Assembly (NCBI GenBank): GCA_951406725.2
Contig: OX597831.1
Location: forward strand, 10,478,001-10,542,000
Length of the DNA: 64,000 nucleotides
Source of the DNA: Octopus vulgaris
Taxonomy: Eukaryota
Direction: 5' to 3'
Positions within the stretch are counted from its first letter, which is position 1. Every line of letters starts with the position of its first letter. A program made the translations under genes and the position numbers. Shown piece after piece: positions 573 to 59,927 of this stretch. The notes under the pieces were generated by a model that worked only from the letters and a program-made list of their open reading frames with translations, made no database searches and had not been told where the DNA came from.

Positions 573-1296
573 AAATTTATAAATGAGGGTGAAAAATTTG
601 ATTTTAATTTAATAATACCATCAATTTAACACCAAGTGGCTTAGCACATAAAAACCAGGGAGACCATACACATTTATACATAAATATAAGAGAGTGACCA
701 CTATGTGGTGAACTCTAGTGCTAAAAATACTGGTATAGCCATTAAAAGTTGTTTCCAAGAAGAAATAACGTTACATTTAACGTAAGGAAAGTGAAATATA
801 ACGAAAAAATAGATTAACACTGAACAATTGTTTCATTATTAGTGTAATATGCAATTTTACTTACACAACATCTATAAATCATCGGCAGAGGTTTCTCTTA
901 AATACAATTTATTAGACCTTCACGAGCGTCAAATATACATGTGGTGTAATCGATTGTATTCGTAGTTATGATTCAAATTCCCCCGCCAAAAACATGATAA
1001 AACTCACTGGAAGCGAATACCACACGTGTATTTGACGCTCATGAAGGTTTAATAAATTGTATTTAAGACAAACCTCTGCCGATGATTTATAGATGTTGTG
1101 TAGGTAAAATTGCATATTACATTAATAATGAAACAATTGTTCAGGGTTAATCTAGTTTTTCGTTATATTTCACTTTCCTTACGTTAAATGTAATGTTATT
1201 TATTCTAGGAAACAACTTTTAGTGGCTATACCAGTAACGGAGCTATTTTTAGCACTAGAGTTAACCACATAGTGGTCACTCTCTTCTATTTATGCA
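573..1296. mobile_element. (TA)n-bracketed asymmetric fold-back element, Penelope pseudo-LTR-like
   Basis: Arm ~677-945 is the reverse complement of ~1019-1296 (e.g. agagagtgaccactatgtggtgaactctagtgctaaaaata vs tatttttagcactagagttaaccacatagtggtcactctct). Spacer is ~75 bp; (TA)n lies on both sides. Confidence 0.85.
1071..1148 (+). ncRNA. Hammerhead-like ribozyme motif with extended stem II (mirror copy at 816-893, minus strand)
   Basis: aacc(t)ctg-CCGATGA-[~45 nt hairpin]-GAAAC-aatt-GTT-cagggtt. Stem I is aacc.ctg/cagggtt; stem III is the palindrome acaattgt. Confidence 0.55.
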
Positions 1297-1469
1297 TATA
1301 TATATATATATATATATATATATATATATATATATACACATACATATCTATTTGGAATAATACACATATATACCATTATGCCTATAAAATGGATGTATGA
1401 ACTCAATACCCATACATATCTTACATATATTTTCTTTCCTCCACCTCACTCTCTATTTATATCATATCG

Positions 1470-1525
1470 AAATGTGATGAAGGGATATTATTATTAATTA
1501 ATATCCTAGAAACAGCTGTAAGACC
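1470..1525 (+). ncRNA. Hammerhead-like motif in a short element ending at (TA)n
   Basis: GTGATGA-a-gggatatta/taatatcct (stem II)-a-GAAAC-agct-GTA. (TA)n begins ~70 nt downstream. Stem I is degraded. Confidence 0.6.
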
Positions 1526-4500
1526 TTCTATCATAAATGCTCTAATATCTATACAGCCTTGGTTTTTTTCATCGCATTACGCAAGATTTCATATATATAT
1601 ATATATATATATTTATTTATTTATATAAAGAAAGCATTTTAATATTCTGGCTAGTGATAAAACTATCTTGAAAAATGTTATCCTTATATTAGAAGTAAAT
1701 CTATATATATATATATCTATATATTTGTCACTTCATGCATTCAGGAAATCATGCATTCAAGGTTACACACATTTTTTATTTAGGAGGAATTATGCAAAAG
1801 GATACGGAAAAGTAATCCAAAATTTGAGATAGACTAAGAATATTGTTGTTTTATCATACACGCTTATCATCTATATCGGAAGAATTTATTCTCTTCTCCA
1901 TTTGGGATTTAGTACCTTTTGTGTGCGGCTAACGATGATTTCATTCGGCTAATGGGAACGTGAGATTTGAAAACTATCCAGAATGAAAGTACGATTTCTA
2001 CTACAGGCCAACATGGCCGTTTGAGTAATTGAGAAAACATGAGACGTAAAATAACAGTGGAGAGCATAACCGGGAAGATAAATAAATAGAGAAAAACACA
2101 CCAATGCGCACCACCGATAAACACACGCACGCACACCGGTATAAACATATTGATAACTAAACAAACAAATATATCTGTGAGTGTCTCTATGTGCAGAGGC
2201 GCACGACTCTGTCCATGCATTCTATATATATATGTAGTTGTATGAATGTGTGTCTTTGCAATATGTGCATTTATATATACATATATCTGTATGTATATGT
2301 GTGAGTGCATATATATCTATATATATATATATGAATGCAGCTGTATAATGTATATATATATATATATATATATATATATATGAATGCAGTAATAATTCAT
2401 ATATTATGTATATATGTATATGTATGTATAAATGTATGTATACGTGTATGTTTGTATATATAGACACATATTTATATACGTATATATATATACGCATACA
2501 TGCTTAAACGCATTCATACACAAACACACATACATACACATGCATACACACGTATATCTATATACGCTTGTTTAATGCCGTGATGCATATTAGGATTTAT
2601 ATGAAATAAGCTTAATCCACACACTCTCCCCCACCCCCTATCTGCATTTCTCTACAAGAAAATTGATTTTATGTCAAAGCAAATTGAAGAGGGGCAAACA
2701 TTTATTTTCACATCCAGTGTTTCACTAAAATCCAGTTGCACCAAACACTGTAAAGGAAAAATCAGAGATAAATATCACGTTTTTCAAGAGCATGTATCCA
2801 AGATGAATATTCTGGTTAAGCGTGAAAATTGAAGATCCTTCAAGACAATCATTACTCACCTCACACTTGCCTAAAAATTAAGTGATAACGATTTTGCTTA
2901 GATATTCAAATTCATGGACTGCATTCTACACTTGCTTTGATATGTTATTTGTATGCTATGTTCGTGTCATATCCTTTGCGATGGCATAAACCTGATATTA
3001 ACCGGATAATAATCTCAGTCATTTCATTCTTGTAAGCCAGAAAATAAATTAAGCAATCAAGTGTATGAAGTAATTTGAATATAAGATCATTTAAAAATAG
3101 TACATCGGCATCGTTTGAAGATAATTATGTTTCATGTTCTGAGACTTACAGTTTTTAATTAAAAAAAAAAATCTTACTGAATGCAACTTAATCTATTGAA
3201 TAGGTACGGAGCGGGTAGCTAAAAACATTCACATCGGTTAGCAAGTTAGAACGAAAAGCACATAGTATTGATGTTCTGAACGGAGACATTGCATCTATAT
3301 TCTCTATTTGTTGTTGCATGTTTCAAATCCCTGATAACATCTCTAACGCCTTCTTTTGGGACCGACTTTCTTCAAAAGTGTTTGTTATACCGATTTCCAG
3401 AACAAACATACTTACAGAAAAATAGAATCGCATTTAATATTTCCATGGTTATTTATGATCTGTTTTACGTTTTGTATATCACTATTAAATAAGTAACATT
3501 TACTATCATATTTTCCTGATAAATTAGCATATTTATCTCTTTTACCTTGAAGATGTAATCTATATCTCGATCTTGACGAAGTGGAACTGCATGAAATACA
3601 AAACAATAACTACAGAAATCTAGTTGAATGTTGCAACGTATATTTCGTATCGAATATTTAATCAGGAACTGTCTGTCAATTACCTAAGAAACCTCGCCAT
3701 GTACCTACTGAGTTATAGTTTACTAATATACCTTTCATTAAGAGGAAGTCTAGCGAAAATTAGTGTTTTCGAGTTTATATTTGTTTGCTTTTAATGTCTT
3801 GTGTGTCTCTAACATTGAAATATTTAACTTGAGGTCATTCTACTTTCTCTTTCGACATCGCTATTGATTAAACATTTACGGTCGTACTCAATACTAACTT
3901 TATATTTCCGCTACTGGCTCTCACGTTTTTTTATAATATTCTCTAGAAAATTCTAATGGTTGCCACAATACTGATACAACATGTTCATAATGGACAATTG
4001 ATTTATTATGTAAAAATTCCTTTCTATTTTACTTCGTGGCAACTTTCTCAAGTTTGGCGTTATTTGTTTGAAACAGCGACCATCGTAAAATGATTTAATG
4101 CAGCACCGTTTGTCCATTGATGGACGATTTGTTAATGTGATTTGTTTTTATCTTTACAATCAAGCGCTAACTTTTCTTTTGGCTAAATTCCATTTCTTAT
4201 TCTTGTAAAAATGTAGTAACCGGATCAAGTTCCCTCATACACATGCATACTTAGATACATACACGTACACACACACACACATATATATATATATATATAG
4301 ATGTCAGTGTATATATGTATATATATATATATATATATATATATCTAATATATATATATATGTGTGTGTGTGTTTGTGTCTCCCTCTCTCTCTCTCTATA
4401 CGTATATATATATATATATATATATATATATATATATATATATATATATTAAGTATATTGGAAGCATAATTTATGGTAAAATGTATTTCAATGCCAGGTT

Positions 4501-58105: not shown

Positions 58106-58328
58106 CAGTATTCCCTCACCATATCACGGTTCACCTACTGCGGCTTAATATCTAAGCTCACATCGATTCATCCGCGTTGTTATTTTACATTTATAATAAA
58201 ATAAATATATACAAATTATGAAAATAATTAAAAAAATGTACAGTACACTACTGTTTCTACTTTACGGATTTTCCTCTATCGCGGGTGGGATTTGAAATAT
58301 AGCACCCGCGATAGTCGAGGGATTACAG
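58106..58328. mobile_element. pogo/Tigger-type MITE
   Basis: ta|cagtattccctcaccatatcacgg ... cccgcgatagtcgagggattacag. Subterminal hairpin ctatcgcgggtg/cacccgcgatag. Confidence 0.7.
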
Positions 58329-59759
58329 TGTTCCGAATAAACAGATTATCTACAGATTAATCTACAGATTATTTTCTTAATCGATTGATTCTCCACTTGA
58401 ATTATTTCAATACATATCTGCATCCATGCTTCTTATATAACGATACATTGTTTGGATGACTCTGTGTAAATAATTGATTAGAAAAGATTTCTCTCCATGG
58501 AATGTCAAATATGCGAACATATTTCATACCAAATACCAATATTTACTGAAATAATTATTGTTCACTTCCAGCACGTATGTATATACCCTCATTTAAATAT
58601 TATTTTCCTTGTTTATTACTGGCCAGGCATTGTAGATATCATAACGTTATCTTCACTGGTCACATACATGGGATAATAAAGATAAGGAATTTATTACAGC
58701 AATTTTCCGCTTATTAATATATTGTCCACCGAAAATCACCATTATATACATATATTCTAGCATATCTTTAATATATTAGGGTTAGAGCTGACTCTGGTTC
58801 AACGGAACATGTGTGTGAGAAATCGATATACCATATATAATTTATCTAACATAGATTATTTAATTTCGGTATAGAAACCTATATTACCGCATAGTTTATT
58901 GTTGATTGACAGAAGAGATTCAGTTAAGGTTAGCGCGTTTCCTATCTTTAATATAATCACGTCCATTGATTTAATGTTTCGCGCTGCACATGTTAATATT
59001 GTTAATAATTTTATAAATAACCTGCGTAATTCACTAAAGTCCCAGGCAGGTTTGACAAAGTATCATTCCTTTTGTCATTGAGAGAGAAGTTTAATTATCA
59101 TTGATCATCTACACTGAAACTAATGTATTCCTACGGATTCATTCATTACGCTCTGATCTTATCAAATCCAGTTTGCAAAGATTTTAGTCAGAAACTATGA
59201 AGTCCTGTGATTACAAACACATTAACGTGGTGCAATGGCCGAAATGCCAATGTTAAACAACGTTCCGTAATCTCTCAACATAATAGGACTCGTCTTGACA
59301 TTTGTTCGAAAATGCAATTCAGGTATTATGCATTTTATGATAACCTGCAATAACCTGTTAGGTATGAAACTATTGTTTAATACACATTATTCTCACAGAC
59401 GATTCTACAAGATTATTTCTAACTGCTAATGCTGTTAATTTTCCAGTTTTCTCATTTGATTCCTCAGAGAGTTTTCATTAGCCAGTGTCTAATAAAAGTT
59501 GAAGACTGGAGCATTTAAAACAAAATCTACAAAGGGTATTACTGCTGAACCTCCACTCATATTAGCAGCGATACACTTACATATGCACACATCCACACGT
59601 CAAAGTCGCTAATCCCTATCTACACATTCACCCATATACCTACACACGCGCACCTTCGTTTTGGTATCACCAGTACCTTATTATCTCCCCTTTTTCCTAG
59701 TACTCCTGTCCAACTAGCTTTTTCCAACCAGTCGCCATGATTGACTGCTTATTTCACAT

Positions 59760-59927
59760 TTTTAAAAAAATTGTCTCTCAGGGTTTTTTTTCCTCTCAAT
59801 CGTTTCTGTTGAAGAGCATAGACTCGAAAGGTAAAAAAACCAGCTCATCTTCCCGAGTGTCATACTAATGCAGCTGCCAGTTGCACCTACACCTGTCTTC
59901 AAGTTTTGTTTTTCGGTAAATGTCAAC
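59760..59927 (+). mobile_element. Short element with hammerhead-like core, ending in (TA)n
   Basis: ttt-CTGTTGA-a-gagc ataga ctc-GAAAG-GTA-aaa at 59803-59836. Homologous to 14790-14996. Confidence 0.65.

Follow-up and report, generated by a model that had tools for sequence, protein, structure and literature searches.

Candidate hammerhead ribozymes at TA microsatellites in Octopus vulgaris: probable truncated ends of Penelope-like elements and a gene-less 493-nt unit

A 64,000-nucleotide stretch of the Octopus vulgaris genome (G000:C18:10478001-10542000, hereafter the window) contains short repeats that look as if each carried a minimal type-I hammerhead ribozyme, and the question that they raise is what these repeats are and which machinery copies them. 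The window has a G+C content of 33% and is dense in TA microsatellites; the genome as a whole comprises 2.8 Gb. From the letters alone, the original prediction named twelve sites and read them as non-coding families of non-autonomous, ribozyme-processed RNAs. We report that ten of the 12 sites are, judged by sequence, members of repeat families with the type-I minimal hammerhead fold. Most of these are probably 5'-truncated 3' ends of coding Penelope-like elements (PLEs) with a minimal hammerhead in their pseudo-long terminal repeat (pLTR), while the sites at 816 and 1071 belong to a 493-nt unit that has no gene of its own and is probably copied by the enzymes of such elements; we give this reading as a whole a probability of about 0.88.

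Searches of the octopus genome with its own sequences assigned the sites to nine families (A to I). The best 40 candidates were scored per family (14 for family G), and 14-30 loci per family were read. The features in the window are as follows, with clade and element types assigned by motif.

564..1018, minus strand: left arm of a family D insertion, 466 nt of the 493-nt non-coding unit, with its end at unit position 279
~818-890, minus strand: predicted hammerhead of the left arm, core C-C-G-A-U-G-A, long stem II, loop III AAUU
1021..1307, plus strand: right arm of the same insertion, with its end at unit position 178, in (TA)n
1074-1146, plus strand: predicted hammerhead of the right arm, core 1079-1085, GAAAC at 1130, predicted cut after 1141
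1352..1590, plus strand: family C, 3' end of a Hydra-type PLE; this copy lacks C3 as well as the 5' strand of stem I
14821..14995, plus strand: family A, 3' end of a Neptune-type PLE; position 6 is U and stem III is damaged
28073..28134, minus strand: family H, 3' tail of a CR1-type long interspersed nuclear element (LINE); hairpin and GAAAC only
30063..30397, minus strand: inverted coding fragment of family E (linker and start of the endonuclease), 97% identical to the full-length copy L300
30599..30810, plus strand: family E, pLTR of a Neptune-type PLE; hammerhead from 30609
31828..32037, minus strand: family B, young 3' end of a Neptune-type PLE; intact fold at 31930-31964
32467..32751, plus strand: family F, 3' untranslated region (UTR) of an R4/Dong-type non-LTR retrotransposon; look-alike in which A replaces G5
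34023..34085, plus strand: family G, old, canonical core, 10-nt palindromic stem III; stem III and I' damaged here
41217..41272, minus strand: apparent sister of family C by motif, loop III AGCU; degraded, G for A9
50202..50421, plus strand: family I, 3' end of a Hydra-type PLE; interrupted within stem II, with an inverted copy in front of it at 50202-50274
59573..59927, plus strand: family A, second copy; ~230 nt of upstream UTR kept, stem III damaged

The full family fold is intact in four of the twelve window copies (816, 1071, 30609 and 31930). The family E hammerhead at 30609 combines a U3-A8 core with a 7-bp stem I, a 2-bp stem II and loop III CG, and the family B fold at 31930 has the core CCGACGA (U4C) and a loopless stem III. 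Those at 1470, 14870, 34024, 41217, 50291 and 59803 are damaged members of hammerhead families; in the family I copy at 50291 the cut and inversion in stem II leave no CUGAUGA core, and the apparent stem is a fold-back. The claimed position 70-160 nt upstream of a (TA)n holds roughly at most sites, but 816 and 30609 lie farther away than 160 nt and there is no TA run within 3.7 kb downstream of 41217.

Could such motifs arise by chance in DNA of this composition? In a strict test the core and a palindromic stem III were chosen by sequence alone and pairing was asked for afterwards. The window gave three full matches against 0.02 in block shuffles, with none of 100 shuffles as high, and a looser descriptor gave four high-scoring matches against 0.08 (100 block shuffles). 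The plain count of GAAAC-palindrome-GTH was 22 against 6.1 expected in 100 block shuffles, a figure that takes in non-hammerheads, including three in a common repeat resembling a short interspersed nuclear element (SINE) (6020, 53431 and 60624). In an even sample of 40 evenly spaced 10-kb stretches, the strict test found 24 full matches against 0.1 (0 of 40 shuffles as high), and both stems were present in 24 of 29 cores chosen by sequence only, compared with 0.1 of 3.8 in shuffles. Seven of the 24 belong to one 359-nt tandem array (L320) and the remaining 17 are spread over 400 kb. Extrapolated from this sample, the genome holds roughly 120,000 or more motifs, an estimate that is low because family E and decayed copies escape the strict test. 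One exact pattern covering families A and B matched the genome 33,858 times and its reversed control not at all, and core and pairing are common to unrelated families whose stem sequences differ. The shuffle comparison proposed with the original prediction thus came out in its favour, as did the type-I order of elements at ten of the sites, taken at family level. An Rfam scan of the window showed no hammerhead model among the matches listed (150 of 192), only microsatellite-driven miRNA matches.

What, then, do the hammerhead families derive from? The original prediction took them as non-coding, which failed on walking upstream: in five families (A, B, C, E and I), accounting for six sites, longer copies run unbroken into a reverse transcriptase (RT) and/or a GIY-YIG endonuclease. 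The coding link is the endonuclease in family C and both RT and endonuclease in the other four. In family E the walk reaches the RT, a CX4CxxC linker and GIY-YIG, and L300 is a full-length copy of the form pLTR-open reading frame (ORF)-pLTR, with two hammerheads 3,979 nt apart flanking interrupted RT/GIY-YIG frames; this copy also has an inverted partner. Family A has RT and endonuclease pieces at two loci (L016 and L017), an alignment from endonuclease to hammerhead at ten other places (40 scored) and a low-complexity UTR of ~0.8 kb. Families A and B share the same stems II and III. Copies of B are 96-99% alike, ORF remnants and hammerhead stand on one strand at 8 of 25 loci, and these remnants were matched to the family A protein pieces at 43-65% identity. 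The UTR of B (L362, L390-L414) is ~2 kb of CA/TACA-rich low-complexity sequence, and the element itself therefore spreads microsatellite-like DNA. The DKG and CX4CxxC motifs were read in A and E, and by motif (CX2-5CxxC linker, C-terminal GIY-YIG, DKG) A, B and E would belong to the Neptune clade or possibly to Nematis.

Families C and I probably belong to the Hydra clade, going by some of the motifs described for it (PMC8557442); a first naming as Penelope/Poseidon was given up. In family C, a CxCX5C endonuclease lies upstream at L103 and sequence from endonuclease to hammerhead recurs at five other places (40 scored). Family I has an endonuclease upstream in L284 and L288, with CxxC and CxH read in L284, and I-type hammerheads were also found downstream of endonuclease matches. 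The motifs RWK and DKT were observed only in a related intact frame (L445), not in the C and I pieces themselves. The core of I is canonical in 28 of 30 uncut copies, with a stem II region of ~58 nt and two 3' end points ~100 nt apart. Inverted partner arms occur in families C, E and I.

Open Hydra-type frames of 947, 769 and 792 aa are present at L445 (G000:C1:99946500-99953500, minus strand), L446 and L455; their many near-equal matches suggest a young family, and the descriptor found no hammerhead near any of the three. In the window, a Hydra-type endonuclease end lies at 18196-18354 (minus strand, E 2e-10), with no hammerhead found downstream. A frame with BIR-repeat-like words, by reading alone, adjoins a family I insertion (L193, 2136-2621, minus strand).

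The ends of the copies point to how they are made. Their 3' ends are fixed at (TA)n, at a distance from GAAAC of ~104 nt in family A, ~114 nt in B and ~83 nt in C, and their 5' ends are ragged. Going by known PLE biology, the GIY-YIG domain would nick TA-rich DNA, and the RT would start from one fixed point or two, lying 50-280 nt downstream of the ribozyme, and would mostly fall off after a few hundred bases, so that the hammerhead region would accumulate. Copies span the predicted cut site, which suggests that the template is uncut or re-joined RNA. The ribozyme would cut slowly, dimerised via its palindromic stem III and perhaps only together with the protein of the element, and that of family A may hardly cut.

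Family D is built differently. Its unit is 493 nt long and non-coding (longest stop-free stretch 54 aa), and what lies upstream of the hammerhead is the downstream part of the same sequence, i.e. the unit repeats head to tail. Among 57 distinct segments from 60 loci, the 3' end falls near unit position 178 in 26 and near 279 in 24, and 5' ends are scattered round the unit; 50 of the 57 span the predicted cut site. Fourteen segments are longer than one unit, the longest having 789 nt, and none reaches two units; arms mostly hold less than 1.6 units, with two tandem hammerheads at two places. The window insertion is an inverted pair, one arm ending at each of the two end points. An exact 20-mer of the unit occurs at 92 genome places. 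Covariation, which had been suggested as a check, supports the fold: in 28 of 35 distinct rows 95.8% of cells are paired and 6 of 22 stem pairs, four of them in stem I, changed on both sides, changes that stem from a few related subfamilies and hence represent few independent events. No coding parent was found in the 60 loci, another 85 loci, of which ~50 are Hydra-type endonuclease places, held no match to the unit, and sequence look-ups for families D and F gave no matches. The two-point ends match the two-start 'tail' described for Poseidon of Anolis carolinensis (PMC11167929), and a Penelope-like enzyme is therefore the likely copier. We regard family D as likely to be retrozyme-like and copied by PLE enzymes, and as the only non-autonomous family that our data establish; the claim of non-autonomous RNAs thus stands for 816/1071 and falls for A, B, C, E and I with their coding parents, and for the two sites in tails of other LINEs.

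A canonical retrozyme-like array is also present in the genome, at L320 (G000:C1:20000001-20010000, positions 2287-4533), with seven identical hammerheads spaced 359 nt apart, five of them on one strand and two on the opposite one, each with a 6-bp stem I and loop III CG.

Several points weigh against the assignment to PLEs and a shared copying machinery. Pfam recognised only RVT_1 on the PLE pieces, below cut-off, and the clade names are taken from motifs, not from a tree. Eight of the twelve window copies are without the full fold, self-cleavage is predicted from the fold alone, and the covariation in family D counts for little more than its few events. Families D and G are without a coding parent, the mobiliser of D being deduced from the insertion pattern. 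In Anolis the ribozyme needed protein and cleavage was dispensable for insertion in vitro, as reported in PMC11167929. With four presumed-RNA runs, 28-30 of the 30 bins along the family E element were covered; ends, strand and cleavage are invisible in such data, which count neither way.

Do these motifs cut? The departures from the canonical core are traits of whole families: U3-A8 in E (29 of 30 copies), U4C in B (26 of 30), C (20 of 30, core CCGAUGA) and most of D (22 of 30), and A6U in A, with a canonical core in G and I. Over the A/B exact matches, position 6 is a pyrimidine in 19,570 of 33,858 and position 7 takes all four bases; among the first 100 matches listed, 98 have U at position 6. 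Over some 27 sequence contexts G5, the 3-8 pair and A9 are nearly invariant; with both 3-8 positions freed, CG occurred in 26 contexts, TA in one and non-pairing bases in six, the TA cases being too few to lend support. The stem III words do not fold on their own and have computed self-duplex energies of -1.7 to -12.5 kcal/mol. Of these variants, U3-A8 is already published (PMC4209133). For other hammerheads, a natural A6C of low activity is on record, as is a U4C with which a viroid stays infectious; both changes lower activity there (PMC3088659). For the minimal hammerheads of PLEs a dimer model via stem III has been put forward, with low activity even as dimers (PMC4209133).

It is conceivable, if somewhat unlikely, that the fold is retained because reverse transcription uses it as a signal for protein binding or for folding, and not for cutting, catalysis being lost or irrelevant at least in family A. 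The free position 7 beside a pyrimidine at position 6, the fixation of U4C in B, C and most of D, the lowered activity of A6C and U4C elsewhere, and the 50 of 57 D segments that run across the cut site all fit such a role, and in Anolis catalytic mutants still insert in vitro and no RNA ends were reported at the cut site (PMC11167929). However, G5, the 3-8 pair and A9 are near-fixed as the chemistry would require, and many families keep a canonical core. This alternative bears on function alone and leaves the identification of the sites as PLE ends untouched. A bolder and more doubtful version holds that the most successful PLE family reached tens of thousands of copies via several subfamilies with U6 and an otherwise preserved fold, that its pLTR hammerhead may now be a non-cutting or strictly protein-gated scaffold for the RT, and that a decayed fold of this kind was perhaps captured by an unrelated R4/Dong-type LINE as its 3' signal (family F); if true, family B, with stems II and III as in A but with A6 and C4, would be a natural control.

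Improbable for most families is that separate non-autonomous, ribozyme-processed (circular) RNAs make the short copies and that coding copies are only distant parents. This form holds for family D, the genome has its canonical 359-nt array, long copies are far fewer than short ones, and the UTRs of A and B are long and of low complexity. Against it, the 5' ends in A, C, E and I are ragged and nested through the UTR into the ORF, and no return to the unit start was noticed in these four families among the best 40 copies scored per search.

That the sites are chance matches or decayed repeats misread as ribozymes has next to nothing left in its favour beyond two look-alikes and eight copies with incomplete folds, given counts that no shuffle reached, a reversed pattern with no match and unrelated families that agree in core and pairing despite different stems; it is refuted for ten sites, and holds for 28075 and probably for 32670.

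These two sites had been named as hammerheads on their layout. The motif at 28075 (family H) consists of a hairpin and GAAAC, and both core and GUH are absent; long copies continue into an RVT_1 frame (E 1e-31), and by its sequence the site is a CR1-type LINE tail, not a hammerhead. The element behind 32670 (family F) has a restriction-like endonuclease and would be of R4/Dong type by motif reading. Here nearly all of 666 exact matches have A for G5, with C4-G5 in 12, and the first pair of stem I is missing so that stem I is unclosed; 32670 is probably a hammerhead look-alike in a LINE tail. C4 is the only partner of G5 in the two rows with G5 among the first 100 of the 666 matches listed. CpG decay as origin of this core was considered and rejected, the C-to-T partner with G5 being absent from those first 100, and by eye none of five other Dong-type tails shows a hammerhead-like motif. 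The family F tail, with its hammerhead-like layout and palindromic stem III, occurs twice in the window (32467-32751, and 46260-46748 on the minus strand), and at L152 and L168 it also ends a second upstream sequence with no coding match nearby, possibly a partner SINE.

Family G (34024) has a canonical core, its copies being 68-85% identical. A search upstream of 25 further loci turned up no coding parent; one weak Hydra-type match (E 4e-5, L481) is not common to the others. A Naiad link was considered on account of a fragment near L179; no protein link recurred upstream of these 25 loci.

How do these families compare with known systems? Minimal type-I hammerheads in terminal repeats of metazoan PLEs, mostly in solo truncated copies, were described by Cervera and de la Pena 2014 (PMC4209133), and the idea of an undescribed system must be given up: the abundant motifs appear to belong to this known class, the fixed A6U core being the unusual part. 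What the original prediction said of Penelope-type minimal hammerheads with palindromic stem III, in several unrelated families and at TA microsatellites, is borne out. As described there, both sets have an extra nucleotide after A9, a palindromic or absent loop III, the U3-A8 variant, many families per genome, solo truncated copies and opposite-strand pairs 100-700 bp apart. They differ in copy number (~2,000-9,000 there, roughly 120,000 or more by extrapolation here), in the fixation of A6U and U4C in whole families, and in the length of the stem II region, 40-75 nt in D, in I and in other families here.

The Neptune clade as presented by Craig et al. 2021 (PMC8557442) differs from A and B in their low-complexity UTRs of ~0.8 and ~2 kb. 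Features given there for the Hydra clade that are found again here are the CxCX5C linker, CxxC and CxH around conserved E and N, (TA)n insertion and hammerheads; few families are given there, whereas one endonuclease query here returned 16,955 first-look candidates. Hydra-1_Obim of Octopus bimaculoides is listed with (TA)n targets (PMC8557442), and families C and I are likened to it by description, not by sequence. With non-LTR retrozymes, for which a PLE is the proposed mobiliser in metazoans (PMC7229834; bioRxiv 10.64898/2026.07.22.740005), family D and L320 share, on the published descriptions, a non-coding unit with one type-I hammerhead arranged head to tail. Family D departs from the canonical form, a hammerhead with loop I-II contact in arrays of two or more complete units, in its minimal hammerhead with long stem II, its 493-nt unit, its inverted two-armed insertions and the lack of an array of two complete units. 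The account of Poseidon by Frangieh et al. 2024 (PMC11167929) resembles our families in two internal starts giving a 'tail', AT-rich targets and an uncut RNA template; the tail is 30-40 nt there and ~100 nt in D and I.

Why PLEs keep a hammerhead is a puzzle, given low activity in vitro and insertion without it in one reconstituted system. The octopus genome offers a panel of families whose cores are fixed in different forms (A6U, U4C, U3-A8) or whose stem II is very long, in large copy numbers and, for A, B, C, E and I, with a known coding parent; such a panel serves the question whether cutting matters for PLEs. Small hammerhead variants in PLEs were reportedly treated by Lunse et al. 2017, a work cited in PMC6765202. 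Titles and abstract starts gave no account of A6U, nor did those for octopus, Penelope and hammerhead together point to this variant; Lunse et al. 2017 or the supplements of PMC4209133 may cover A6U or U4C. The available main text of a 2026 Octopus vulgaris repeat annotation is without the words 'ribozyme' or 'hammerhead' (PMC13282606). Our data suggest that in octopus-like genomes many of the short repeats flanked by TA are stumps of PLEs, which may go unclassified in repeat annotations.

At least 20 more hammerhead families lie in the flanks of loci L001-L464, with stem II regions of 12 to ~80 nt and palindromic loops III that include ATAT, ACGT, GATC, AATT, CCGG and TATGCATA among others. 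The SINE-like repeat is frequent in the window (6009-6213, 42728-42905, 48838-48953, 53030-53446, 60135-60337 and 62308-62448), and three of its copies hold GAAAC-GT, which inflates loose hammerhead counts. Pieces of Dong-type LINE frames are found at 40458-40577, 49146-49259 and 51390-51571 (minus strand), and a LINE RT tail lies at 61671-62198 (minus strand).

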